The notes beneath the pieces were generated by a model, which saw only the letters and a list, made by a program, of their open reading frames with translations, searched no databases and was not told the origin of the DNA. A stretch of 64,000 nucleotides of DNA from Escherichia coli (GTDB lineage Bacteria > Pseudomonadota > Gammaproteobacteria > Enterobacterales > Enterobacteriaceae), in the NCBI RefSeq assembly GCF_003334785.1, contig NZ_QOWV01000008.1. One strand, given 5' to 3'. The first letter of the stretch is position 1. The number at the start of each line of letters is the position of its first letter. The position numbers were made by a program, and so were the translations under genes. Positions 7,291 to 53,172 of the stretch are shown here, piece by piece.

Positions 7291-8351
7291 TCCTTCAACT
7301 GTGGAATATGTGCCACACCACTGCGCATAATCCACTTTCTTAAAGCCGGTGCGGTCAGGCATCGGCTTTTTACTATCTTGCCGAAGAGTTTTAAACGCAG
7401 TTTGCGGGTGGCGCGCCAGTAAGCGGTATTGAGCTTCTCTGGCTGCTTCAGTAACACCGAACGCAGAATGTCTGTGCTATCCAGCGCATAGCTAATCCCC
7501 TCCAGCGAGCTGGCGCTGATAAATCCCGCCGCTTCACCAATCAGAAAGGCGTTGTCCTTACCGCAGACAAAATCCTGCCAGCGCGAGGGAAACAGCACCG
7601 TGCATTTTTCGCTTTTCACCGTCTTACCAAACTGGAACTGAAAGGCGCTCATTTTCTCTTTCAGCGTCGTGAAACGCGTCTGACCGTCTTTCATTGGATA
7701 GGCACCGCCAAAGATAAAATAACCGTCTTTGCTGATACTCCATGAATAACAGTTAGTTATCGAATTATCAAAGATGCAGGAGTAGAACGGCACCGGATGT
7801 TTCTCCGCGAACCACTGCTGGATAGCGACATATTTACGGATTTGATGATCCGGGTAGAGATGTCGCCGCACCATCGAGTTTGCGCCATCGGCACCGACCA
7901 GATAGCGGGCGGTAATATGTTGCTCCCAGCCGTCTGCACGAAAAATGACATGCCATTTATCATCCTCACGCCAGATTTTTCGGCACAGGCTGTCGTGATA
8001 AACCTCAACGCTGGCGGGGATCAGCGATTTCATCCACAAGTCGAAAGCATGGCGATTAATATTGATATAGCTTCGCTGGTAGTTACGCGTGAGCGATGCG
8101 GCGACGTCGACGGTTTTGACGCTGAAAATCTGCGGATTAGCGATCACATCGACAGGAAGCGTCAGCCCATCGCGAATAAAAGATCGCTGCGCGTCCGGTG
8201 CCAGCAGACCGCCGCAGGGTTTGCTGAAACCTTCAGTACCACACTGGTGCTTTTTATCCAGCGCGATCACCTGCATTTTGCCTGCTAACTTTCGTGCCAA
8301 CGCCGATCCTGCCGGGCCGAGGCCAATAATCGCCACGTCGAAATGTTCCAT
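7287..8351 (-). CDS. cbrA: FAD-dependent oxidoreductase CbrA (colicin E2 tolerance)
   Basis: ORF 7287..8372; internal start [17 protein letters not shown] with GxGxxG FAD-binding motif; 354 aa. Confidence 0.8.
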
Positions 8352-8418
8352 CTTTTCACTCACATTCATCACGATGGCAAAAGACTATTGTCTGAAAGTG
8401 AAGTCCTTGTGAAGTATG

Positions 8419-9666
8419 ATGGCGGGACCCGTTTTGTATCAGGACCGCGCCATGAAACAGATAACCTTTGCTCCCCGTAATCACCTGCTCACCAATACCA
8501 ATACCTGGACGCCCGACAGCCAGTGGCTGGTATTTGACGTGCGTCCTTCTGGCGCGTCGTTTACCGGCGAGACCATTGAGCGTGTGAATATCCATACCGG
8601 CGAGGTCGAGGTTATCTATCGCGCGTCACAGGGCGCACACGTCGGCGTGGTGACCGTTCATCCGAAGTCAGAGAAATATGTTTTCATCCACGGCCCGGAA
8701 AATCCTGATGAAACATGGCATTACGACTTCCATCATCGGCGCGGAGTGATTGTTGAAGGCGGCAAGATGAGTAACCTTGATGCGATGGATATTACCGCGC
8801 CGTATACGCCAGGAGTGCTGCGCGGCGGCAGCCATGTGCATGTCTTTAGCCCGAACGGTGAAAGGGTGAGCTTTACCTATAACGACCATGTAATGCATGA
8901 ACTCGATCCGGCGCTGGATTTGCGAAACGTCGGTGTTGCTGCGCCGTTTGGCCCGGTCAACGTACAAAAGCAGCATCCGCGTGAATACAGCGGTAGCCAC
9001 TGGTGCGTGCTGGTGAGCAAAACCACGCCCACGCCACAGCCTGGCAGTGATGAAATCAATCGTGCTTATGAAGAAGGATGGGTAGGAAATCACGCGCTGG
9101 CATTTATTGGCGACACACTTTCGCCAAAGGGCGAGAAAGTGCCGGAGCTGTTTATCGTTGAGTTACCGCAAGATGAAGCTGGCTGGAAAGCGGCAGGTGA
9201 TGCGCCGTTAAGCGGAACGGAAACAACCCTGCCCGCGCCACCGCGTGGCGTCGTGCAGCGACGTTTAACCTTTACCCACCATCGGGCTTATCCGGGGTTA
9301 GTCAACGTCCCGCGCCACTGGGTGCGCTGTAATCCGCAGGGTACACAAATCGCGTTTTTAATGCGAGATGATAACGGCATTGTGCAACTGTGGCTTATCT
9401 CGCCACAGGGCGGCGAGCCGCGCCAGTTAACCCATAACAAAACGGATATTCAGTCTGCATTTAACTGGCATCCGTCAGGAGAATGGTTGGGCTTTGTGCT
9501 GGATAATCGAATTGCTTGTGCCCATGCGCAAAGCGGCGAGGTTGAGTATTTAACCGAACACCACGCCAATTCACCTTCTGCGGACGCCGTGGTCTTCTCG
9601 CCGGATGGTCAGTGGCTGGCGTGGATGGAAGGCGGCCAGCTGTGGATCACCGAAACTGATCGCTAA
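8419..9666 (+). CDS. yidR: Uncharacterized protein YidR
   Basis: ORF 8416..9666; start codon choice between adjacent Met codons is uncertain. Confidence 0.75.
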   Translation: MAGPVLYQDRAMKQITFAPRNHLLTNTNTWTPDSQWLVFDVRPSGASFTGETIERVNIHTGEVEVIYRASQGAHVGVVTVHPKSEKYVFIHGPENPDETWHYDFHHRRGVIVEGGKMSNLDAMDITAPYTPGVLRGGSHVHVFSPNGERVSFTYNDHVMHELDPALDLRNVGVAAPFGPVNVQKQHPREYSGSHWCVLVSKTTPTPQPGSDEINRAYEEGWVGNHALAFIGDTLSPKGEKVPELFIVELPQDEAGWKAAGDAPLSGTETTLPAPPRGVVQRRLTFTHHRAYPGLVNVPRHWVRCNPQGTQIAFLMRDDNGIVQLWLISPQGGEPRQLTHNKTDIQSAFNWHPSGEWLGFVLDNRIACAHAQSGEVEYLTEHHANSPSADAVVFSPDGQWLAWMEGGQLWITETDR

Positions 9667-10204: not shown

Positions 10205-10305
10205 ACATCGTAGCCGATGAGGACGCGCCTGATGGGTGTTCTGGCTACCTGACCTGTCCATTGTGGAAGGTCTTACATTCTCGCTGATTTCAGGAGCTAT
10301 TGATT

Positions 10306-10719
10306 ATGCGTAACTTTGATTTATCCCCGCTTTACCGTTCTGCTATTGGATTTGACCGTTTGTTTAACCACTTAGAAAACAACCAGAGCCAGAGTAATGG
10401 CGGCTACCCTCCGTATAACGTTGAACTGGTAGACGAAAACCATTACCGCATTGCTATCGCTGTGGCTGGTTTTGCTGAGAGCGAACTGGAAATTACCGCC
10501 CAGGATAATCTGCTGGTGGTGAAAGGTGCTCACGCCGACGAACAAAAAGAGCGCACCTATCTGTACCAGGGCATCGCTGAACGCAACTTTGAACGCAAAT
10601 TCCAGTTAGCTGAGAACATTCATGTTCGTGGTGCTAACCTGGTAAATGGTTTGCTGTATATCGATCTCGAACGCGTGATTCCGGAAGCGAAAAAACCGCG
10701 CCGTATCGAAATCAACTAA
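10306..10719 (+). CDS. ibpA: Small heat shock protein IbpA
   Basis: 137-aa alpha-crystallin-type s[22 protein letters not shown]... Confidence 0.95.
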
Positions 10720-24270: not shown

Positions 24271-24366
24271 ATATTTGGACAAAACGCAAACTGTGATCGA
24301 TACTCAACTATGCACTAAATACGTCAAAATTCGTGCCGAAATTGCGCGTTCTGCGCGGAACACGTA

Positions 24367-24452
24367 TACTTTCAGTGTTGACATAATACAGTGTGCTTTG
24401 CGGTTACCAGCCGCAGGCGACTGACGAAACCTCGCTCCGGCGGGGTTTTTTG
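24367..24452 (+). ncRNA. istR: IstR-1 antitoxin sRNA (approximate boundaries)
   Basis: tatact -10 element upstream; body is near-complementary to a copy at 24108..24135 inside the tisAB leader; ends at hairpin plus T6. Confidence 0.45.
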
Positions 24453-41401: not shown

Positions 41402-41695
41402 GAAAAAAATTTTTTTTCGAAAGAACTGTTCACACTGTTCACCTTTCTGTTTTCTCCTTTTATTTCAGTTTGATAGGTGGTGAATAATGGGTGAAGGGTG
41501 AACATTCGATTCTTCACCTCCGGCATTCTGCCGGTGTGACTTGTGCAGGGGATTAATCCTCCGCACTGAAATCACACAGGGAGAAAAAAGTTTTTTTGAT
41601 TTGATTGTTCATCTTTCGTTTTTCTCTTTTAATTTCAGTGTGATAACGGGTGAATATACGGTGAAGGGTGAACAGTGGATTGTTCACTTTCGGGG
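41402..41695. repeat. crr-like region: two imperfect ~120-bp direct repeats with TGTTCAC motifs
   Basis: Units at about 41402..41522 and 41579..41695 share tgttcac / gggtgaa / ggtgaagggtgaaca blocks. Confidence 0.6.
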
Positions 41696-41703
41696 AATTC
41701 AGG

Positions 41704-41731
41704 GATAAAAAAAGACCGGCAGATGCCGGTC
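41704..41731 (-). terminator. Rho-independent terminator after alpha
   Basis: gaccggcagatgccggtc hairpin with U-run on the minus strand. Confidence 0.6.
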
Positions 41732-41738
41732 AGATGAG

Positions 41739-44072
41739 TCAGGCTGTTGCAGGGTCGTCACATTTCGGCAGCCAGTCGCCGTAGCTTTCCTCTTTCAGCG
41801 TCAGGTTGGTCTGTATCCCCTGTTTGGTATGGCGCTTCTCGTAATTCAGTCCGTATTCCTTCAGCATCACCGGCAGCCCCAGCCCGAACATTTTCAGACT
41901 GAGTACATTCCGGTAGCCGTTTGCCTCCATGTAGGCCAGATAGGCGTGATAGAGGTATTTACGGTAATTACGCGGGATGATACTGGCGTTCCCCATATAC
42001 ATGCCGCTGGTCTGCGGCAGGGTTTCCAGATAGCCGATAAAATCAAACGTCGGGTCGGCATCCCGTTTGATGTTCAGTGCCTCGTCTGAGTTCTGCTGGG
42101 ACTGAAGCAGTGACCGGGCGAGCATCGGGTCGCTGAACTTCTGCATCAGGTAACGCACGATGACCGCCAGCTCGCGGGTGATTTTGTCCTTAAGCTGCGG
42201 GTCGCGCTCCTGCGGGGCTATCTGTTCCGGGAAGTGAATAATCACCCGCCGGCGTGACACGCCGCCGCTGCGGTCGGTGAAGCGCATCGGGTTATTGTTC
42301 ACGGCCAGAATCACCGCCGGGATGTGCGTGGAGTACGCATCCCGGTATTTCGGGTCAACGGACACCGCATCGCCGCCGGTGATGGCCTTGAGTCCGGCAC
42401 CGTCGCCGCTCCATTTTTCCTGGTCCGGCAGGCGTATCAGTGAGAAGCCAGTTAACGCGGCACGTTCACGCGGGGATTCCAGCGTCTCGATGGTGGCCGA
42501 CGTGGCGTTATCCTCACCGGCCAGCAGGGTGGCTATTTCGGCCATGATACTTTTGCCGCTGCCGCCGGGACCGGTCACCTCCAGAAAGAGCTGCCAGTCG
42601 TAGCGGTTTGCCAGCACCATAAACAGTGCGGCCAGAATCACGTCGCGTTTTTCCGCACGGCCACCGGCGGCACGGTCAAGCCAGCGCCAGAATGCGGGGG
42701 CGTGGGTTTCCAGCGTTTCACCTTCCACCGGCGGGGTGAAATCCACATCGCACAGGGCGCGCATCCAGTGTGACGGACTGTGCGGGTGGAACGTGCCGTT
42801 CTGCGTGTCGAGCACGCCGTTACGAAAGCCAATCAGGCGGCGGGAGGGGGCTTCCTGCTGCGGAATAATCAGCTTCAGGGTGTCCACCACGGAGGCCACC
42901 TTCCCGGAGGAGAACGGCGCGCGCAGACGCTGAAACAGCCCGGCCACATCCCGGGCAAAGTCCTGTGGTGGCAGCACCTTCCAGACACCATTTTCATAGC
43001 GGGACAGAAGCTGGCCGTTGGCATCGACCGCGAGCGCCTCGCCGTAATGCTCATAGATACGCATGGCCTTTTCGCTGGTACTCATGGCGGAAAACTCCGC
43101 TTCGCTCATGGTGTCGAACGGGCTTTCAGCCGGTGGCCGGATGGCATCATAAATGGCCTTACGGGTGGTTTCCCCGCCGTACTGCGTGAAGGCATCATTC
43201 CAGTCACCGAAGACCGGCGGCAGGGCAACAACGCCCTCACACGCATCTGCGGCTGCGGCGGCTTTTTTCTGGCCGTCACCGCTGAGGTCACGGTCTGCGG
43301 CAAGGACAATCTGACAGGCCGGATGCTTCTGCCGGGCAAGGCTGGCCAGAGAAAGGAGGTTCACGGAAGAAAGCGCCACCATCACCGTTTCACCGGTCAG
43401 GTGATGTACGGTAAGTGCGGTCGCGTATCCCTCCGCTATCCACAGACGTTTTCCGGCCTGATTCTGTCCTTCAAGGGTGTGACAGGTGCCCCTGACCTGT
43501 CCGCCTTTCAGGGTGCGCTTACGGCCGTCAGCACTGATTAACTGAAGGTTAACCAGTTCGCCGCTGTCGTCATACAGTGGCACCACAAGGTCACCGGCGC
43601 GCCAGCTCACGCCACCGGCTCTGTGTGTGCCGGTCAGCATCCGGCATTCCCGGCCGGGAAAGCCCTTGCGGGTCAGGTAGGCGTTACCGGTTCCGGGACG
43701 GGTTTTCGCCATCAGGGTTTGTGCCAGTGCGGCGGCGTTCTTCCGGGCGGCTTCTGTTTCAGCACCGGCGGCGGCCGTCACTGCCGGGTCAGCCGGGGGC
43801 AGGCAGCCGGTCACGGCAGCCACCTTTGCGGCCGCGTCGGACGGGGAAACACCAAACACCTTTTCAACCAGTTTCAGGCCGTCACCGGCACCACACTGAT
43901 TGCAGTACCAGGTGCCGCGCCCCTCCCTGTCATCAAAACGGAAACGGTCACTTCCGCCACAGACCGGACAGGGCTGATGACGGTTTTTCAGCACCTGAAT
44001 CCCCAGCGACGGGAGAATACGCGGCCAGTGGCCGAGCGCATGGCTGACGGTGGCGGTTACGTTCATTTTCAT
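41739..44072 (-). CDS. P4 alpha-type primase-helicase
   Basis: 777-aa ORF; N-terminal zinc-ribbon CPVCGG..CNQCG, Walker A GPGGSGKS. Confidence 0.9.
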   Translation of the reverse strand: MKMNVTATVSHALGHWPRILPSLGIQVLKNRHQPCPVCGGSDRFRFDDREGRGTWYCNQCGAGDGLKLVEKVFGVSPSDAAAKVAAVTGCLPPADPAVTAAAGAETEAARKNAAALAQTLMAKTRPGTGNAYLTRKGFPGRECRMLTGTHRAGGVSWRAGDLVVPLYDDSGELVNLQLISADGRKRTLKGGQVRGTCHTLEGQNQAGKRLWIAEGYATALTVHHLTGETVMVALSSVNLLSLASLARQKHPACQIVLAADRDLSGDGQKKAAAAADACEGVVALPPVFGDWNDAFTQYGGETTRKAIYDAIRPPAESPFDTMSEAEFSAMSTSEKAMRIYEHYGEALAVDANGQLLSRYENGVWKVLPPQDFARDVAGLFQRLRAPFSSGKVASVVDTLKLIIPQQEAPSRRLIGFRNGVLDTQNGTFHPHSPSHWMRALCDVDFTPPVEGETLETHAPAFWRWLDRAAGGRAEKRDVILAALFMVLANRYDWQLFLEVTGPGGSGKSIMAEIATLLAGEDNATSATIETLESPRERAALTGFSLIRLPDQEKWSGDGAGLKAITGGDAVSVDPKYRDAYSTHIPAVILAVNNNPMRFTDRSGGVSRRRVIIHFPEQIAPQERDPQLKDKITRELAVIVRYLMQKFSDPMLARSLLQSQQNSDEALNIKRDADPTFDFIGYLETLPQTSGMYMGNASIIPRNYRKYLYHAYLAYMEANGYRNVLSLKMFGLGLPVMLKEYGLNYEKRHTKQGIQTNLTLKEESYGDWLPKCDDPATA

Positions 44073-44086
44073 GGTGTTGTTCTCCT

Positions 44087-44407
44087 TCAGTGCAGTACCG
44101 GCGCTTTTATGTGACGGGCACAGAGTTCATCCATCACAACCAGCCCGAGAAAGGACAGCGACGGCGCGGCCTTCAGGGGGCCGGATTCCATTAAATCTTC
44201 CAGCAGGGCACAGGCTATCTGACGCCCTTTTTCCTCACCGTGCTGGCGCAGATAAAAGCCTTCCAGCTCAGCGGCGATGGCCGCCTCCAGTGACTCAAGG
44301 GTGAGATGCGGGTAGCGGTGCTGACGTTCGCACACGGTCAGCCAGGCACAGGCGACAGCGCGACGGTAAAGGGCAGCGCGTAAGACGGGCGGTAAGGGGG
44401 TTTTCAT
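44087..44407 (-). CDS. Hypothetical protein, P4 left-operon position (orf106-like)
   Basis: 106-aa ORF immediately upstream of alpha, same strand. Confidence 0.5.
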
Positions 44408-44542
44408 TTGTTTTCCTCCCTGTGACAGATGACTGCATTCCGTGCCGGTTGCATTAACTGATAAGGCATATCTGCGTCTCCTGAAGACGTGCGTATCCCT
44501 GCGCGAATACGCACATTTAATTTTTCGGGTGTCGTTTTTTAA

Positions 44543-44998
44543 TTACAGATAATTGCGGTAACTGTTATCCGGGGTGATTTCCGGGTCAGGCTCCGTGCGG
44601 GGAATTTCCCGCCATTCCCGCGCCACCGGTGCCGCCCGGCTGACCGGAACAGGGTCCTGCGGGTAAATATCCAGATATTTCTCCCGCCATTTCTGTAATT
44701 CCGGGTCTCCGGCCATTTCTTTCAGTACCGCATGCCGGTTTACGGGGCTGCGTTTAAACAGGTCAGGACGGTCACAGGTAAATTCCCGCAGAAAACGCCC
44801 CAGCGGGATGTCTGTGGTGCGCCCGTCGGCGATGATACGCACAAGGATACTGAATTTACGGCGGTACGGGTTCCAGACAATTTCCGGGCAGCGGTACGGC
44901 ATTTCCCACGGAATACCGTCTTCCAGAATGCCGACCACGGCCACATCGGGAAAACCGGCAGAACGGTAAATCTCACCGGGCTGGGGAAAATCAAACAT
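44543..44998 (-). CDS. Hypothetical protein, P4 left-operon position (orf151-like)
   Basis: 151-aa ORF co-oriented with alpha. Confidence 0.5.
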   Translation of the reverse strand: MFDFPQPGEIYRSAGFPDVAVVGILEDGIPWEMPYRCPEIVWNPYRRKFSILVRIIADGRTTDIPLGRFLREFTCDRPDLFKRSPVNRHAVLKEMAGDPELQKWREKYLDIYPQDPVPVSRAAPVAREWREIPRTEPDPEITPDNSYRNYL

Positions 44999-45857
44999 GC
45001 GTCCTGTCTCCCCGGTCTTTCTGCTGGGCGAGAAAATCGCGGCACAGGCCTTTGGCTTTCAGCTCATTCAGCACAAAATCAATATCTTCATTCAGGTAAC
45101 TGAAAATATGCGGAATGTAGAGCTGATGCAGGCCGGAGAGTTCACGGTGAATCAAATCACCCCCAACAAACTGGGATACGGCGCTGGCGCGGTTGAGCTT
45201 ATGGTAAGCCTCAATGCTGAGGTGTTCACGGGCGTCATGACGCGCTGAGACGGTCTGAGGGGCTTTTTTATTACGCACGGGACACCTCCACCACCGGCAG
45301 ACGGGCAGCAAGGGAGAGCACATAGTCACGGACAAGGGAACGGCGGGCGCTGCGTTCATCACCGGCGACGGTGCGAAGCATACAGATACGGGGATGACGG
45401 TCTGTGCGACGGACAGCCGCAAACACAAAGACAAATTCAGGGTGTGAGGGGGTAAGGGTTGTAGCCATGATGGCAGCCTCCTGTGAATAGCAAATAACGC
45501 TATCGCCGGAGTTCTCACGCTCGATGGCGATAGCCCAGACGGGGGTGAGAATACCGGCTTCACAGGATACCGGCCAGCCCGGAGGCTGCCCCGCCTGAGC
45601 TACCATTGACTCAGAGGCATAACATGCGATTGCGAACAGGATCATACCTGCACGGCAAACCACACGCCACACCATAATCTGGTGCTCTGTGGCGTTGATT
45701 GCGACACAAAAAAAGACGCATGGCGCGTCATATGTCGCCTGTGAATTGCTCGGGTTCTCACGCCCGGCTGCCGATTTTGCGGCAGCGGAAAAACTATATC
45801 CGCAAATGCCGGAAAAAGGCAAGCCAGAAAAAGGGAGTTTTTGCAGAGCGGGCATCA

Positions 45858-46124
45858 TCATGCGTCGTACCCCCGTTTGCGTCCGGCAATGCGTCCGGCC
45901 ATCCATGCGGTGACTTCAGAGTGCAGCCAGGCCACATTTTTACCGCCAAGACTCACCTGCGGCGGAAATTCCCCCTTACGGATGAGTTCGTAGATGGTCG
46001 AGCGTGACAGGCCGCACAGGTGCATCACTTCCGGAAGACGTAAAAAACGCTCCTGTGTGATGTCCGGCAGCGGCATCAGTGGCGTCACAGGGGCGGGAGA
46101 CGGGGAAGAAAAAACAGCTTGCAT
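45858..46124 (-). CDS. AlpA/Vis-family small DNA-binding regulator
   Basis: 88-aa ORF with HTH-like [16 protein letters not shown]. Confidence 0.65.
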
Positions 46125-46403
46125 CGGGCTACCTCGTTAATGTCCATACAGCACCGGATAAGTCCGTCCGGCTTCAGGTAGCGCTTTATTTTGTGAATAT
46201 TTTCAGCAGACGCAACAGGGGGGATTTGTTCCGGCAGCCTTACAATGCTTGTGTATTTTTTGTTCATCTCCACTTAAAGTCATTTAAAGCCACTTAAAGC
46301 AATTCGTAATTTTTATAGTGAAATACAAATCGTTTTTTCTTATTCATTCCCGGCGAATTAATAAAAACAAACAGTAATAAACAGCACAAAAAGCCCATCA
46401 ACG

Positions 46404-46508
46404 GGTGAACAGTGGTGAACAGACGGTGAACAGTCATTACTGCGATTGTTCACCCTTTAACTTACTGTATTACTTATCTTTTTTCTTATGGTGAACAGAG
46501 GTGAACAG
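46404..46508. repeat. ori-like iteron cluster (GGTGAACAG octamer copies)
   Basis: Five direct copies of ggtgaacag plus one inverted ttgttcacc within about 105 bp, between divergent vis and sid. Confidence 0.6.
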
Positions 46509-46676
46509 TAAAATATAAAAAAACAAACAGTAAGCCGGTTTTTCCTACGACCTTTTCCTGGCTTGCCGGTGTGAGGATGAGTCTCCTGTGTCAGGGCTGG
46601 CACATCTGCAATGCGTCGTGTTGTTGTCCGGTGTACGTCACAATTTTCTTAACCTGAAGTGACGAGGAGCCGGAAA

Positions 46677-47411
46677 ATGTCTGACAACACCATCCCTGAA
46701 TATCTGCAACCCGCACTGGCACAACTGGAAAAGGCCAGAGCCGCCCACCTTGAGAACGCCCGACTGATGGATGAGACCGTCACGGCCATTGAACGGGCAG
46801 AGCAGGAAAAAAATGCGCTGGCGCAGGCCGACGGAAATGACGCTGATGACTGGCGCACAGCCTTTCGTGCAGCCGGTGGTGTCCTGAGCGACGAGCTGAA
46901 ACAGCGCCACATTGAGCGCGTGGCACGCCGGGAGCTGGTACAGGAATATGACAATCTGGCCGTGGTGCTGAATTTTGAACGTGAACGCCTGAAAGGGGCG
47001 TGTGACAGCACGGCTACCGCCTACCGGAAGGCACATCATCACCTTCTGAGTCTGTATGCAGAGCATGAGCTGGAACACGCCCTGAATGAAACCTGTGAGG
47101 CGCTTGTCCGGGCAATGCATCTGAGCATTCTGGTACAGGAAAATCCGATCGCCAACACCACCGGCCATCAGGGCTACGTCGCACCCGATAAGGCTGTCAT
47201 GCAGCAGGTGAAATCATCGCTGGAACAGAAAATTAAACAGATGCAAATCAGCCTCAGCGGCGAGCCGGTTCTCCGGCTGACCGGACTGTCAGCGGCAACA
47301 CTTCCGCACATGGATTATGAGGTGGCAGGCACACCGGCACAGCGCAAGGTGTGGCAGGACAAAATAGACCAGCAGGGAGCAGAGCTTAAGGCCAGAGGAC
47401 TGCTGTCATGA
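46677..47411 (+). CDS. P4 Sid-like capsid size-determination scaffold
   Basis: ORF 46659..47411; ATG at 46677 preceded by gaggag RBS; 244 aa, coiled-coil-rich. Confidence 0.8.
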   Translation: MSDNTIPEYLQPALAQLEKARAAHLENARLMDETVTAIERAEQEKNALAQADGNDADDWRTAFRAAGGVLSDELKQRHIERVARRELVQEYDNLAVVLNFERERLKGACDSTATAYRKAHHHLLSLYAEHELEHALNETCEALVRAMHLSILVQENPIANTTGHQGYVAPDKAVMQQVKSSLEQKIKQMQISLSGEPVLRLTGLSAATLPHMDYEVAGTPAQRKVWQDKIDQQGAELKARGLLS

Positions 47412-47908
47412 TTTACTGCCCGTCGTGTGGACATGTTGCTCACACCCGCCGCGCACATTTTATGGACGATGGCACCAAGATAATGATTGCACAGTGCCGG
47501 AATATTTATTGCTCTGCGACATTTGAAGCGAGTGAAAGCTTTTTCTCTGACAGTAAAGATTCAGGAATGGAATACATTTCAGGCAAACAGAGATACCGCG
47601 ATTCACTGACGTCAGCCTCCGGTAGCATGAAGCGCCCGAAAAGAATGCTTGTTACCGGATATTGTTGTCGGAGATGTAAAGGCCTTGCACTGTCAAGAAC
47701 ATCGCGGCGTCTGTCTCAGGAAGTCACCGAGCGTTTTTATGTGTGCACGGATCCGGGCTGTGGTCTGGTGTTTAAAACGCTTCAGACCATCAACCGCTTC
47801 ATTGTCCGCCCGGTCACGCCGGACGAACTGGCAGAAAGCCTGCATGAAAAACAGGAACTGCCGCCAGTACGCTTAAAAACACAATCATATTCGCTGCGTC
47901 TGGAATGA
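47408..47908 (+). CDS. P4 Delta-like late transactivator (tandem Ogr-type zinc finger)
   Basis: 166-aa ORF with two CxxC..CxxC blocks (CPSCGH..CRNIYC and CRRCKG..CTDPGC). Confidence 0.8.
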   Translation: MIYCPSCGHVAHTRRAHFMDDGTKIMIAQCRNIYCSATFEASESFFSDSKDSGMEYISGKQRYRDSLTSASGSMKRPKRMLVTGYCCRRCKGLALSRTSRRLSQEVTERFYVCTDPGCGLVFKTLQTINRFIVRPVTPDELAESLHEKQELPPVRLKTQSYSLRLE

Positions 47909-47981
47909 GGGCTGCCGGTTAACACCGGCCGTCGCCGCACACCGTATTTTTATTCTTCAGCATGATGAGAAAGAGATAACG

Positions 47982-48554
47982 ATGGAAAGCACAGCCTTAC
48001 AGCAGGCCTTTGACACCTGTCAGAATAACAAAGCAGCATGGCTGCAACGCAAAAATGAGCTGGCTGCGGCCGAACAGGAATATCTGCGGCTTCTGTCAGG
48101 AGAAGGCAGAAACGTCAGTCGCCTGGACGAATTACGCAATATTATCGAAGTCAGAAAATGGCAGGTGAATCAGGCCGCCGGTCGTTATATTCGTTCGCAT
48201 GAAGCCGTTCAGCACATCAGCATCCGCGACCGGCTGAATGATTTTATGCAGCAGCACGGCACAGCACTGGCGGCGGCACTGGCACCGGAGCTGATGGGCT
48301 ACAGTGAGCTGACGGCCATTGCCCGAAACTGTGCCATACAGCGTGCCACAGATGCCCTGCGTGAAGCCCTTCTGTCCTGGCTTGCGAAGGGTGAAAAAAT
48401 TAATTATTCCGCACAGGATAGCGACATTTTAACGGCCATTGGATTCAGACCTGACGCGGCTTCGGTGGATGACAGCCGTGAAAAATTCACCCCTGCGCAG
48501 AACATGATTTTTTCGCGTAAAAGTGCGCAACTGGCATCACGTCAGTCTGTGTAA
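47982..48554 (+). CDS. P4 Psu-like polarity suppression / capsid decoration protein
   Basis: 190-aa ORF following delta. Confidence 0.8.
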   Translation: MESTALQQAFDTCQNNKAAWLQRKNELAAAEQEYLRLLSGEGRNVSRLDELRNIIEVRKWQVNQAAGRYIRSHEAVQHISIRDRLNDFMQQHGTALAAALAPELMGYSELTAIARNCAIQRATDALREALLSWLAKGEKINYSAQDSDILTAIGFRPDAASVDDSREKFTPAQNMIFSRKSAQLASRQSV

Positions 48555-48718
48555 AATTCCCCGAAAATCCGCCCGTTTTTACTGAAAAAAGCCATGCATC
48601 GATAAGGTGCATGGCTTTGCATGCGTTTTCCTGCCTCATTTTCTGCAGATCGCGCCACGCCCGGCGTGGCCTGAGCGTGTCAGCGCAACTGCATTAAAAC
48701 CATCCCACAAAGCGGGCG

Positions 48719-48737: not shown

Positions 48738-48979
48738 TGCGCGCTTACTTAGATGCGTGAATTTATTTATATCACTGAAGTATATCCCTAAGCTCATTTC
48801 TCAAAGGGCCTATGGTTGCACAAGGTTGTACCATGGCATTCAAAACTTTTTAAACCAAGAATGACAATTTCATTATTAGGCCGGAATAGTTACTAATTTT
48901 AGTATAGGTTGCGATTGTTTAACGCATTTTTTATTATGATGCAGATTTTATTATTACTAATGGGGTGCAAAAAACACGT

Positions 48980-50269
48980 ATGAAAAAAAATGTTGGTAAC
49001 CGCAATAAAAATTCTGATGTGCTTATTCTTAAAGGTATGTTGAACAATTTAAAAGATGGTTTAAATAATTTTGAATTATTGCTTAAATTGCAGTTTAAAA
49101 TATTGGTGTGCGTGATGAGATGTGAGCGGAAAATTAAGTTTCTTAAAAAGAATAATGCTCATTTAAGGTCGGTGTTAAAAAAATCAAGACTTCCAAAAGA
49201 AAAATCTCTGGCAGTAAAAGAAAAAATTAAATACAATTCTGAAGTAATTACTGCTGAAAAATTCAAGATATATACGTATAAAATGTTTGGCGATGCTGTT
49301 GCATTTTTATACATCGATAAATATACAATTAAACAGTTATACTACAATGTACATAATTACAATGTTAAAGAAACGTCGGGGGATTTGAGCGGTAAGTCTG
49401 GATTGCGAGAGGAATGGGAATGCGTAAAACTTGCATGTGATAATAAAGTTCCAGCTCTGTTGCATGATATTACAATGAGTATAAGGCATGGAGATGTATC
49501 ACTTTTAGGTAAAGATGAGCCATTTATTATTGAGATGAAATCAAGCTCAAATACAAATAAGAGAGTTGAGCGGCAAAAATCTAACCTTGAAAAATTAGGA
49601 AGTTTCATAGCAAAAGACGAAGCTGAAAATTTTCGAGGGATTCCATTGTTAATCAGGAAAAATTTGTTAACTGAAGAGGAATCATATTCTCAGGTTTTAA
49701 ATGAGTGTCTTAATGATTGTCGCAGCAAAGGAATGGCTTTGGTTGAAGCTGAAAAAGGATTTTATATCTGCGCAGTTAGAGAAGGGAATATGGCTTCTAT
49801 GCTAGAAAATATAGATTTTGATGAAAAAAAAGAAGTTTTTCCTGTATTTCTCAATCAATATAAAAATAATGGGGAGTGGCTACCATTAACACCATTTACA
49901 CTATTAATTAACGATCCTTACGATCTCCATGATTTTATCGAAGGGGAATTAACAATAGCTTGTTTTTTAATGCTCGATGAATACAAAAAAATTGCTATAG
50001 AACTAGGCTATGAATTAGTTTTTGTTTCTAATGATGAATATAGTATCTTGTTAAAAAGAATTGGTGAAGATATTATATTTGGTGTTTCCTGGCAAATGTT
50101 GTTAAGAGTTCCATTAGAGATGATGTCCATGTCATGGTTGATAAAAGAAAGTATTAATATATATAGTAACTCCCTAGAAAATAGCACCCATAATGATGAA
50201 TTAAATCAGGGGCAGGGAAATACTAAAAATTCATTATTCGAAAAATACAAGAATTTATTTTCTTACTAA
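48980..50269 (+). CDS. Hypothetical protein in satellite variable region; PD-(D/E)xK-like signature
   Basis: ORF 48965..50269 (GTG) or ATG at 48980; AT-rich; motif HGDVSLLGKDEPFIIEMK. Confidence 0.6.
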   Translation: MKKNVGNRNKNSDVLILKGMLNNLKDGLNNFELLLKLQFKILVCVMRCERKIKFLKKNNAHLRSVLKKSRLPKEKSLAVKEKIKYNSEVITAEKFKIYTYKMFGDAVAFLYIDKYTIKQLYYNVHNYNVKETSGDLSGKSGLREEWECVKLACDNKVPALLHDITMSIRHGDVSLLGKDEPFIIEMKSSSNTNKRVERQKSNLEKLGSFIAKDEAENFRGIPLLIRKNLLTEEESYSQVLNECLNDCRSKGMALVEAEKGFYICAVREGNMASMLENIDFDEKKEVFPVFLNQYKNNGEWLPLTPFTLLINDPYDLHDFIEGELTIACFLMLDEYKKIAIELGYELVFVSNDEYSILLKRIGEDIIFGVSWQMLLRVPLEMMSMSWLIKESINIYSNSLENSTHNDELNQGQGNTKNSLFEKYKNLFSY

Positions 50270-50370: not shown

Positions 50371-51744
50371 TTATCTAATATATTTTGTTACTTCCATATT
50401 ATCTTCATCGTCAAAAGAGTACTCAACCATCATACGACTATTTTTACCTGACTTAATATCTTGAAGCCAAGCTGAGGCAACCCTAGGGTCTAAATGCTGT
50501 TTTCTACTCAGCTCATTATTTTTTAGCCTATCAAGCCTTATTGCTCTTTGAAGAGTTTTATCGATGTAGTCTTCCAAATCAATGGACAACCTCCTTTTTG
50601 GATATAAATATTGGTATTCATCACACAATAGTACTCCTGGTAATTTAATTTCGCGTAGGTCGAAAGAATACCAACTATAGTTTTTAGACTCATTAGCTAA
50701 TTCCGAAACTAGATGAGCCCCATTTTGTTGTAAGAGAGATATTTTGTGATCGATGCTAATGTCAGATATTTCTCTTAAAGACTCAAAATGCATGTTTTCG
50801 TAGATAGTATTTAATAAAATACTCTCCATGTAAGAGTAAAAATCAGTACCATCGATGATAATATTAGTTTCATTGTAGACTGCAAGAGACATAAGATATA
50901 TGAAGAAAACTGCGGGAGTACTATTACCTCTGTTTATATCAAGTCTAAGGGAGTTGACATAATCAGGCGGAGAGTTTGAGAAAATTTCTCTTATTAACCA
51001 GTCTGGAATAGTGGTTCTTGTTAGAATGTCAGCGTTCAAACTTGAACGACATAAAAAAATACACATCTTTAATTTTAATTTTATTGAAAATGATGGGAAT
51101 AAATGATCGATGAAAGATAAAATACATGTATACTCTGCTAAGTCTGTTTGTTGCAACTTTTCTTTTATTTCATTTTCAAGCATTTTTAATTTAAAAAAAT
51201 CATTCCTTTTTTCTAATATTTCCCAATGAAATAATTGCTCCTGAGCGTACGCATGCCCCTCTAAAATAGCTAGCATGCTTAAAGGAATGTTTAGGATTTC
51301 TTGATAATTATTAACATACCCAAAGAAATGGACTCTGATATACACACCCATATCGTCATCATATTGTAATGATGCTTTAATATTTTTATAATTTAATTTA
51401 TTAGTGCTGTTGTTTTTGAAGTGATAATGTAAAGTAATTTCAGTATCATCAACTAATAAATTATCAAAAGCCTCCTTTGTTTCATATTTAAAATAGTTAT
51501 ATAGCCGACATGAATAATTTAACCCCCAGTGAGTTGTAGAACAATCAAGTAAATGGATTGTTTCATGGAGATATGTTTTATAAAATTCAATTTCGCTATC
51601 ATCAAAATCATATATGCTTTTACTGTCTATGATATTTTGTGCTTGCGGTAAACTTATATTTAATTCATCGTTTGAAATCTCAATTAAATGTGATGAAAAA
51701 TCATAAGAACCCAATGTTTTGCTGTTAAATATACATCCGCTCAT
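50371..51744 (-). CDS. Hypothetical protein with HEXXH zinc-metallopeptidase motif, translationally coupled to int
   Basis: 457-aa AT-rich ORF; YLHETIHLLD at residues 58..67; start overlaps int stop as ATGA; agggga RBS. Confidence 0.65.
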   Translation of the reverse strand: MSGCIFNSKTLGSYDFSSHLIEISNDELNISLPQAQNIIDSKSIYDFDDSEIEFYKTYLHETIHLLDCSTTHWGLNYSCRLYNYFKYETKEAFDNLLVDDTEITLHYHFKNNSTNKLNYKNIKASLQYDDDMGVYIRVHFFGYVNNYQEILNIPLSMLAILEGHAYAQEQLFHWEILEKRNDFFKLKMLENEIKEKLQQTDLAEYTCILSFIDHLFPSFSIKLKLKMCIFLCRSSLNADILTRTTIPDWLIREIFSNSPPDYVNSLRLDINRGNSTPAVFFIYLMSLAVYNETNIIIDGTDFYSYMESILLNTIYENMHFESLREISDISIDHKISLLQQNGAHLVSELANESKNYSWYSFDLREIKLPGVLLCDEYQYLYPKRRLSIDLEDYIDKTLQRAIRLDRLKNNELSRKQHLDPRVASAWLQDIKSGKNSRMMVEYSFDDEDNMEVTKYIR

Positions 51745-53077: not shown

Positions 53078-53172
53078 TGGCGGAAGATCACAGGAGTCGA
53101 ACCTGCCCGGGACCGCTGGCGGCCCCAACTGGATTTGAAGTCCAGCCGCCTCACCGGAGACGACGATCTTCC
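53078..53172 (-). tRNA. selC: tRNA-Sec (selenocysteine)
   Basis: Minus strand reads GGAAGATCGTCGTCTCCGGTGAGGCGGCTGGACTTCAAATCCAGTTGGGGCCGCCAGCGGTCCCGGGCAGGTTCGACTCCTGTGATCTTCCGCCA. Confidence 0.85.

Follow-up and report, generated by a model that had tools for sequence, protein, structure and literature searches.

The immunity and early-control region of a P4-like prophage in Escherichia coli

Described immunity regions and the locus analysed here

The closest described system is the immunity region of phage P4 (X51522 / NC_001609, about 7888-8767). In P4 the CI RNA pairs with the targets seqA and seqC, causing premature termination (PMC4825925), and the IsrK-like and C4 RNAs have been equated with seqA and CI, respectively (PMC3632133). 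PMC10111431, citing Forti et al. 1999, describes eta and Kil, the position of PLE within eta and the translational coupling to the alpA homologue. Termination is prevented, again according to Forti 1999, by the translation of eta and not by an Eta protein, and this translation has been reported for transcripts from PLL; timm is placed within kil/eta. The E protein binds P2 C (PMC2995052). A similar arrangement is found in immI of P1 and P7. There the regulatory RNA matures from the leader of the very operon that it controls, and it blocks the translation of the first translated gene, which codes for an Icd-like division inhibitor. In Salmonella Gifsy-1 the IsrK/orf45/anrP module likewise lies upstream of a C4-like processed RNA (STnc1160) and controls a downstream toxic/anti-repressor gene (PMC4825925).

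We analysed a window of 64,000 nucleotides from an E. coli genome (assembly GCF_003334785.1, contig NZ_QOWV01000008.1). Two overlapping minus-strand ORFs of 190 and 211 aa had been noted in the initial annotation between an orf151-like ORF and vis, and both appear in the ORF list exactly as described (44991..45563 with a GTG start and 45271..45906 with an ATG start). The segment had been read as the control region of a left operon with an RNA-based immunity factor as in P4, and its coding capacity had been considered unassigned. The first of these readings is borne out by the alignment to P4, in which positions 44400-46300 matched over the full length with 97.0% identity (1901 bases), as well as by the RNA family matches and co-varying targets described below. 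The second does not hold: the segment is the well-studied P4 immunity region and every one of its elements is already described in the P4 literature. We conclude that positions 44991-45860 almost certainly represent the immunity and early-control segment in the left operon of a P4 prophage variant at selC.

The features are listed in Table 1. On the minus strand the order is the eta start over the vis stop, PLE, the leader with seqA and t1, a variable spacer, CI, seqC, kil and epsilon. This gene order is shared with P4, and CI and both targets are base-for-base the same, so homoimmunity with P4 is to be expected. The vis product is identical to P4 ORF88 in 87 of 88 aa and matches phrog_2790 ('excisionase and transcriptional regulator'). 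P4 differs in a few single-base changes, one of which lies in the loop of t1, and has its own spacer allele. It also carries int-cII-beta-gop, whereas here we found the selC site with a non-P4 integrase and a cargo module. The int and cargo end of the island is not P4; for the two cargo ORFs beside the integrase, searches of PADLOC, NCBIfam and Pfam all came back empty.

Table 1. Features of the immunity and early-control segment, with positions in the window
Feature	Position	Strand	Evidence or remark
vis / orf88, AlpA-family excisionase and regulator	45858..46124	-	ORF list, P4 and PGAP annotation
eta, 196 aa, three consecutive ATGs (45861/45858/45855)	45271..45861	-	translation, PGAP
PLE-like sigma-70 promoter inside eta (TTGCCT, 18-nt spacer, TATAGT), predicted	45793..45822	-	promoter scan
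c4-a1b1, overlapping the leader	45747-45799	-	RF03163, 49.5 bits vs gathering 46.7
PLE transcript leader with seqA and t1, isrK-like	45709..45786	-	Rfam RF01394
seqA target: GTGAGAA (45761-45755), TTCACAGG (45745-45738)	45738..45761	-	exact complements of CI loop
t1: GC-rich hairpin GACGCGCCATGCGTC, then seven T, predicted	45708..45729	-	terminator scan
Variable spacer, t1 to CI	45613..45666	-	eta residues about 66-83
CI RNA gene (C4 antisense RNA family), immunity factor	45523..45610	-	Rfam RF01695
seqB boxes in CI loop: UCCUGUGAA, UUCUCAC	45567-45559, 45551-45545	-	complementary to seqA and seqC
seqC target: GTGAGAA (45518-45512), TTCACAGGAGGCTGCC (45487-45472)	45472..45518	-	exact complements of CI loop
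C-rich, G-poor transcript stretch at kil start, candidate timm Rho utilisation region	45380..45510	-	composition
kil, 65-aa Icd-like cell-division inhibitor, 3' part of eta	45271..45468	-	NF033153
epsilon (E), 95 aa, anti-repressor of helper P2 C repressor	44991..45278	-	translation, phrog_10016
orf151, downstream neighbour	44543..44998	-	147/151 aa identical to P4 ORF151; phrog_10748 full length

The similarity to P4 extends beyond the immunity region, with 97.7% identity between the core (41404-48718) and P4 4291-11624. A megablast search detected near-identical DNA in 1062 of 5426 complete E. coli genomes. Two other genomes carry the sequence of the region at 100% and ∼980 at 95-99% identity; E. 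coli A1 (NZ_CP029328) has a 100% identical copy. These observations bear on the possibility that the element is a decayed, silent remnant in which the cassette is present but without function. Such decay would fit the cryptic state of many P4-like islands in E. coli, the non-P4 int and cargo end of this one and the broken eta of one relative (L006). However, the promoter, t1, CI, seqA, seqC and the kil, eta and epsilon frames are all intact and at least 97% identical to P4, and alpha, cnr, sid, delta, psu, vis and the integrase ORF beside tRNA-Sec are all of full length. Given this and the many identical or near-identical copies, we regard a decayed remnant as very improbable and continue with an intact P4 prophage variant.

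The CI RNA, its targets and the leader

The CI gene was matched by RF01695 over the entire model (1-87 of 87, at 45523-45610 on the minus strand) with 74.9 bits against a gathering threshold of 45. Its sequence is identical to P4 CI and its predicted fold has a free energy of -49.3 kcal/mol. All 27 pairs of the stem were kept in 9 loci, two of them with compensatory changes. The leader matched the isrK model (RF01394) from 1 to 77 of 77 with 71.4 bits against a threshold of 50, and shows the two 5' hairpins and the terminator also seen in Gifsy-1. t1 corresponds to the 3' hairpin of the isrK model; its name and its position between PLE and cI follow Briani et al. 2000. A permissive Rfam scan (E ≤ 1) of 44400-46600 returned no families besides C4, isrK and c4-a1b1. 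The PLE-like site was the sole promoter-like site in 44900-46500; its sequence is identical to P4, where a consensus -10 is annotated at the homologous position in X02534.

In order to evaluate the pairing of CI with its targets we compared the duplex energies to those of shuffled sequences. The CI-seqA duplex reached -34.6 kcal/mol (shuffles: -19.6 ± 3.9) and the CI-seqC duplex -37.4 kcal/mol (shuffles: -21.3 ± 3.7), and in neither case was the energy equalled by any of 500 shuffles. The second seqC box (TTCACAGGAGGCTGCC) contains the kil Shine-Dalgarno sequence AGGAGG. Across 9 loci 100% of the cells were paired between seqA and CI and 96.3% between seqC and CI, with compensatory changes in 12 of 15 pairs for each target, compared to only 35-53% paired in a control for which the pairing partner was slid. 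We observed the same three-way co-variation of CI, seqA and seqC in a set of 79 unique relatives, which comprise 26 loop types. Cognate combinations had a mean duplex energy of -34 kcal/mol and non-cognate ones of -25 kcal/mol, and in 75 of the 79 sequences the cognate target was better than at least 90% of the non-cognate targets, for seqA and seqC alike. Cognate pairing was scored here by duplex energy, as an exact 8-mer match at fixed offsets undercounted it owing to G-U pairs and 1-nt shifts.

On the strength of the near-identity, the mechanistic steps can probably be carried over from P4, and we found nothing in the sequence that contradicts them. P4 CI is processed by RNase P/PNPase. In the lysogen, constitutive PLE transcripts would be processed to stable CI RNA. 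Pairing of CI with seqA would then increase termination at t1, and pairing with seqC would block the translation of kil, so that the nascent RNA would be open to Rho-dependent termination at timm. As an outcome epsilon, orf151, cnr and alpha (replication) would be off. Activation of the late promoter PLL further upstream would let ribosomes that arrive from vis translate the entire eta frame across the cassette, and this translation would suppress termination and allow the operon to be expressed; epsilon would then inactivate the C repressor of the helper P2. timm is said to lie inside kil/eta. At 45380-45510 the C/G ratio of the transcript rose up to 2.1, the highest value of the region in a sliding 78-nt composition analysis, and timm may have its Rho utilisation region in this stretch.

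The leader could have a further role beyond that of a passive CI target, in which the t1-terminated RNA would work in trans like IsrK of Gifsy-1 and activate translation of the downstream frame on read-through transcripts. Such a role would agree with the full-length isrK match; P4 seqA was called a structural homologue in the IsrK paper (PMC4825925), and an IsrK-like element of P4-like prophages was required in S. Typhi in a transposon study (PMC3632133). IsrK of Gifsy-1 has, however, been described as a trans-acting activator of the translation of its own read-through mRNA, whereas the P4 leader has been described as the CI target seqA. Furthermore, the boxes of the leader co-vary with CI, which is already explained by its role as a target. 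We consider a trans-acting leader unlikely, and it would add to the regulation by CI rather than replace it. To our knowledge no P4 experiment shows a trans-activating role of the leader.

The eta frame and the genes kil and epsilon

The start of eta overlaps the vis stop by 4 nt (ATGA). The frame encloses PLE, seqA, t1, the CI gene and seqC, and kil forms its end in the same frame. In P4 the sizes are 65 aa for kil and 197-199 aa for eta. For eta we counted 184 identical residues over 199 aligned columns (196 vs 199 aa), with a 3-codon deletion, and for Kil 64 of 65 identical aa. Kil matched the NCBIfam model NF033153 (phage_ICD_like) with 76.9 bits against a cut-off of 25; with its ATG at 45468 it is the first gene translated from PLE transcripts. 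The initial annotation had expected small kil and eta genes below the ORF cut-off, which is right for the short kil only, as eta is the long ORF itself, read from the three ATGs at 45861, and is long in P4 as well.

Epsilon, encoded by the C-terminal half of the 190-aa ORF, begins with GTG behind a GGAGG and shares 8 nt with the end of kil. Its product is identical to P4 in 94 of 95 aa; the P4 annotation reads 'helper derepression protein'. Family matches of the 190-aa ORF were limited to this half, with phrog_10016 covering 95 of 95 aa. The N-terminal half (45279-45563, minus strand) had no PHROGs match at E ≤ 0.1, is annotated neither in P4 nor by PGAP and was rejected as a spurious gene. 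Further ORFs were discarded as spurious overlaps, each with no PHROGs match at E ≤ 0.1 and without P4 or PGAP annotation: the antisense 83-aa ORF (44997-45248, plus strand), two small ORFs on the minus strand (45611-45721 and 45642-45761) and two on the plus strand (45689-45913 and 45699-46007).

We then studied the reading frames and substitution patterns in the 79 relatives. The eta frame was open in 77 of them, a count in which intact frames are favoured by the retrieval with an Eta protein query; the other two frames had on average 4.4 and 6.2 stops. In 78 of the 79 the kil ATG shared the phase of the eta start, and in L006, with its broken eta, kil is annotated alone. The diversity of the third relative to the first and second codon positions was 0.64-1.03 in the eta-specific segments and 3.28 in kil, statistics that ignore phylogeny and cover P4-like elements only. 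The trend was the same on 8 loci, with a third-position excess in kil and none in the eta-specific segments. These substitution patterns suggest that Kil is a protein under purifying selection and that the first 131 codons of eta may matter solely as an open, translatable frame, the conservation of which would stem from the enclosed RNA and DNA signals. The earlier impression that only the C-terminal parts of the two long ORFs look protein-like is therefore confirmed, for the 190-aa ORF by family matches limited to the last 95 aa and for the 211-aa ORF by coding-type substitutions in the last 65 codons (kil) alone. A long ORF that is a conserved, expressed protein had been named as the observation that would refute the earlier reading of the segment, and this is formally the case for eta, given its open frame and reported translation; upstream of kil it carries no protein-level signature.

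The 54-nt spacer between t1 and CI shows 63% identity to P4 with a 9-nt in-frame deletion (27 of 73 alignment columns differ), and its flanks are 98-99% identical. Among E. coli genomes we encountered two spacer alleles, each in about half of the carriers, with a bimodal distribution and no intermediates. In the relatives the spacer falls into six length classes (61, 67, 79, 85, 97 and 106 nt), all in one phase, and all indels are multiples of three. Simple relaxed drift was rejected as an explanation, as a divergence of 37% within flanks diverging by 1-2% and two alleles with no intermediates are not what it would produce. The sharp divergence and the bimodal alleles instead point to an allele exchange behind the difference from P4.

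The long ORF could also be regarded as a functional two-domain protein (ASH and Icd-like), for instance a transcriptional regulator or repressor, to which the RNA elements are secondary. PGAP treats the 196-aa frame as a single gene product ('host cell division inhibitor Icd-like protein'), and the RefSeq record of P4 labels a 137-aa sub-ORF 'transcriptional repressor'. Pfam Phage_ASH (PF10554) matched eta residues 22-143 with 86.9 bits, phrog_6928 ('transcriptional repressor') matched over the full length, residues 79-146 matched longer 'transcriptional regulator' phrogs, and the frame is conserved open. However, the ASH match spans 45433-45798 and thus includes the PLE -10 hexamer, seqA, t1, the CI gene and seqC. 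Purifying selection on the Phage_ASH residues was not detected among the P4-like elements when phylogeny is ignored: the codon positions were equally diverse in every eta-specific segment, compared with the 3.3-fold third-position excess in kil. Residue variability is highest where the codons fall in the RNA specificity boxes, and these boxes co-vary with the RNA segments they pair with. A spacer of 61-106 nt that differs as strongly as described above between otherwise near-identical elements is difficult to reconcile with a protein domain. The 'repressor' label also predates the demonstration of cI as an RNA (PMC4825925). Overall we consider a two-domain protein quite improbable. With somewhat less than even probability, the 131 eta-specific codons may form no protein domain, at least in P4-like satellites, and instead be a translated RNA/DNA control cassette whose frame stays open solely to let ribosomes cover it. 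The two-allele spacer could then recombine as a module and adjust the maturation of CI or the read-through of Eta, or else be neutral filler.

Comparison with other systems and implications for annotation

Besides the organisation of the operon, the region shares with immI of P1 and P7 an RNA of the C4 family (RF01695) and an upstream target which matches c4-a1b1 (RF03163), both above the gathering thresholds. DNA matches of 72-75% over the CI region were found in the P1-like phages D6 and RCS47. P1 has the anti-repressor Ant, whereas in P4 epsilon and the replication genes are found instead downstream of the Icd-like gene. We did not find a translationally coupled Ant-type anti-repressor gene after the icd-like gene in this locus; epsilon had no NCBIfam match and matched only PHROG families that have no assigned function. 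The region works like immI, but as no Ant-type gene lies downstream we do not file it as an immI operon. Compared to P1 and P7, the features particular to P4 are the read-out by transcription termination at t1 and timm and the long eta frame fed from PLL. The anti-repressor loci of N15, phiKO2 and PY54 gave DNA matches of 75-80%, limited to the CI/seqA part of the query, and their neighbours are annotated as 'Icd-like protein', 'transcriptional repressor' and terminator. These are linear-plasmid prophages; only the RNA cassette is common, and neither the genes around it nor the satellite lifestyle are shared.

For the annotation of such elements, automatic pipelines report a single 'Icd-like protein' of 196 aa and overlook the CI RNA together with its targets and the kil gene nested in the frame, and the P4 RefSeq record still keeps the 'transcriptional repressor' label on its sub-ORF. 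The 26 specificity types, the three-way co-variation, the open frame without protein constraint and the in-phase indels lend support to the published model from sequence comparison alone. They also suggest that caution is advised when Phage_ASH matches are read as protein domains.

The P4 core and its island

We compared window 44400-46300 with bacteriophage P4 (X51522/NC_001609, 7297-9206) and observed 97.0% identity across 100% of the length. Two E. coli strains have chromosomes that match this stretch at 100% identity, and among 5426 complete E. coli genomes 1062 gave near-identical DNA in megablast. From crr/alpha to psu the P4 core (window 41404-48718) shares 97.7% identity with P4 4291-11624. 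The other end of the island is non-P4, with two uncharacterised ORFs and an integrase ORF adjoining tRNA-Sec. Because the core matches P4 and the integrase ORF adjoins tRNA-Sec, the element is, judged by its sequence, a P4 variant at selC in E. coli.

Two AT-rich ORFs lie between psu and the integrase, at 48965-50269 (plus strand, 434 aa) and 50371-51744 (minus strand, 457 aa), where P4 itself carries gop/beta/cII. In P4-like satellites this position is a described hotspot for anti-phage cargo. Searches of PADLOC, NCBIfam and Pfam returned no match to either ORF even at E <= 10, and both are candidate parts of a cargo or defence module not yet described. Upstream of vis, the P4 ori region (46300-46500) contains repeated GGTGAACAG-type motifs and, on the plus strand, a hairpin resembling a terminator (46425-46454); these correspond to the ori repeats in the P4 annotation. 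Elsewhere in the window we encountered Rfam matches above gathering for istR (24322-24451, plus), the ROSE_2 thermoregulator (10240-10312, plus) and ES036 (67-109, minus).

Features of the left-operon control region and the island's tRNA gene
Feature	Position	Strand	Basis
orf151-like ORF, 151 aa	44543..44998	-	ORF list
epsilon, 95 aa	44991-45278	-	P4 annotation places epsilon at the same position
kil, last 65 codons of the 211-aa ORF	45271-45468	-	NCBIfam phage_ICD_like, 76.9 bits (cut-off 25)
seqC, downstream target	GTGAGAA 45518-45512; TTCACAGGAGGCTGCC 45487-45472	-	exact complements of CI boxes
C4 antisense RNA (RF01695)	45523-45610	-	74.9 bits (gathering 45), full model
Intrinsic terminator, hairpin then seven T	hairpin 45729-45715	-	only minus-strand one in the scan
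isrK (RF01394)	45709-45786	-	71.4 bits (gathering 50)
c4-a1b1 (RF03163)	45747-45799	-	49.5 bits (gathering 46.7)
seqA, upstream target	GTGAGAA 45761-45755; TTCACAGG 45745-45738	-	exact complements of CI boxes
Promoter-like site TTGCCT-18-TATAGT	45822-45793	-	sole match in consensus scan
eta, 196 aa	from triple ATG at 45861	-	translation of long frame
AlpA-like ORF, 88 aa	45858..46124	-	ORF list
tRNA-Sec (selC)	53082-53172	-	Rfam above gathering; marks the island's integration site

Genes, CI RNA and its two targets

The initial annotation described two overlapping minus-strand ORFs, which the ORF list contains (44991..45563, 190 aa; 45271..45906, 211 aa) between the 151-aa and the 88-aa AlpA-like ORF, and left their coding capacity unassigned. 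Instead epsilon, kil and eta could all be identified with P4 counterparts, and the control system is one already known in detail. Epsilon forms the C-terminal half of the 190-aa ORF, starts with GTG after GGAGG and is identical to P4 in 94 of 95 residues. The N-terminal half, read in another frame than the kil it overlaps, gave no match in a family search. Epsilon is an anti-repressor that binds the C repressor of the helper P2 (PMC2995052). As had been proposed, kil is short (65 aa, 64 identical to P4). Eta had been expected to be small as well and is instead the long ORF, with 199 aa in P4.

An Rfam scan of the window, run with gathering cut-offs, gave three minus-strand matches inside the region; a permissive scan found no family there beyond C4, isrK and c4-a1b1. 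The C4-like RNA corresponds to the P4 CI RNA and the IsrK-like element to the P4 seqA leader (PMC3632133, PMC4825925). In X02534 a -10 is annotated at the position homologous to the promoter-like site. The terminator hairpin is presumably P4 t1, between PLE and cI.

The CI loop boxes (nt 44-52, UCCUGUGAA; nt 60-66, UUCUCAC) lie in the unpaired part of CI and have exact complements upstream and downstream. Within the second seqC box is an AGGAGG Shine-Dalgarno sequence; its end lies 7 nt upstream of the kil start codon (ATG, 45468). The predicted CI-seqA duplex reached -34.6 kcal/mol compared to -19.6 +/- 3.9 for shuffled targets, and CI-seqC reached -37.4 compared to -21.3 +/- 3.7 kcal/mol; none of 500 shuffles was as good in either case. 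The C4/CI match and this complementarity agree with the earlier expectation that the immunity factor is an RNA. CI, seqA and seqC are identical to those of P4 and thus the predicted immunity specificity of the element is that of P4.

At the foot of the leader's first hairpin (45786-45787; columns 364-365 of alignment A1) the P4 reference has GC, and CG is found in the window as well as in each of the other seven E. coli loci. The P4 version breaks one pair and lowers its isrK score, 60.8 bits compared to 68.9-74.7 for the other loci. The GC may stem from an early mistake in the sequencing of X51522, or else be peculiar to the laboratory strain.

We then examined the pairing in P4 and seven P4-like E. 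coli islands with 52-94% Eta identity (alignment A3). In every one, C4 and isrK matches fall inside the homologous ORF. For CI-seqA, 100% of cells in the named pairs were formed and 12 of 15 pairs showed changes on both sides; shifting the partner by 1-3 columns reduced pairing to 41-53% of cells and left 1-3 pairs with such changes. For CI-seqC we observed 96.3% of cells formed and 12 of 15 pairs compensatory, all five exceptions coming from one sequence that is 1 nt out of register in the alignment. Internal CI stems were paired in 100% of cells, with two compensatory pairs. Extending the set to 80 IMG/VR loci (79 unique sequences, 26 distinct loop types) gave mean duplexes of -34 kcal/mol for cognate and -25 for non-cognate targets; in 75 of 79 sequences, for seqA and seqC alike, the cognate target outranked 90% or more of the non-cognate ones.

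One of these relatives (IMGVR_UViG_2698536560_000011) has a mosaic immunity cassette in its eta region. Its CI boxes (CCUGUGAA / UUUCCAC) match its own seqC and neither box of its own seqA (GTGAGAA / TCTAACGG), and the duplex with that cognate seqA reaches just -21.9 kcal/mol. The cassette resembles a product of recombination between specificity types, in which CI-dependent termination at t1 might be lost.

By analogy with P4, PLE transcripts in the lysogen would yield CI RNA. Its pairing with seqA would promote termination at t1, and pairing with seqC would block kil translation and so allow Rho-dependent termination at timm, leaving the downstream genes epsilon, orf151, cnr and alpha silent. 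Transcription from PLL, upstream of vis, would be translated continuously through eta and escape termination. The highest C/G ratio of the transcript (up to 2.1) occurs at 45510-45380, at the start of kil; this is suggestive only, a plausible Rho loading site.

The eta frame

PGAP annotates the eta ORF as one 'Icd-like protein' overlapping the vis stop by 4 nt. A passage of PMC10111431, citing Forti et al. 1999, places a constitutive promoter, CI and seqA inside the gene and describes Kil as a truncated form of Eta.

The long ORF is clearly maintained as an open frame. It is open through to the kil stop in 77 of 79 unique relatives, a sample that favours intact frames as it came from an Eta protein query, and in this interval the two alternative frames contain means of 4.4 and 6.2 stops. 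The 8-sequence set shows 0 stops compared to 2-10 in the other frames. In 78 of 79 sequences the eta start and the kil ATG share a phase, and the six t1-to-CI spacer lengths (61, 67, 79, 85, 97 and 106 nt) all fall in one phase.

Between window 44950-46150 and P4 we counted 42 differing alignment columns, 27 of them in the spacer immediately upstream of CI (45613-45666, minus strand), which is 63% identical to P4 with a 9-nt in-frame deletion, compared to 98.1% and 99.1% for its flanks. The spacer distribution among complete E. coli genomes is bimodal: 449 carry the window allele (at least 95% identity), 428 are at 60-80% identity (those listed being 9 nt longer, like P4's allele), and no intermediate allele was found. 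The pattern resembles an exchange of alleles in a segment whose sole constraint is that the reading frame be kept.

The ratio of third-position to first- plus second-position diversity, a measure that ignores phylogeny, was 0.64 for the N-terminus and PLE, 0.78 for the seqA/t1 leader, 0.92 for the spacer, 1.03 for CI, 0.96 for seqC and 3.28 for kil, with the same trend in the smaller comparison set. By this measure we saw no coding-type substitution pattern upstream of kil. The value for kil and the full-length match of epsilon to a 95-residue PHROG bear out the initial impression that the C-terminal parts of the two ORFs are the protein-like ones. The Pfam Phage_ASH match (residues 22-143, 86.9 bits; window 45433-45798) takes in the PLE -10 hexamer, seqA, t1, CI and seqC. 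From these sequence patterns we infer that the eta-specific part is conserved owing to nucleic-acid signals and the need for an open frame, which fits the published translation-dependent anti-termination role.

The relative in E. coli LAU-OXA (NZ_CP045277.1) has a frameshift in eta, which its annotation lists as a partial 'ash family protein' pseudogene; its kil (65 aa), C4 RNA (86.1 bits) and isrK element are intact. By its sequence this locus is a natural case of eta loss with putative retention of RNA immunity. In P4-like elements Phage_ASH carries no codon-position signature of protein selection, and database labels like 'ash family protein' and 'transcriptional repressor' may in large part describe an RNA cassette that is translated.
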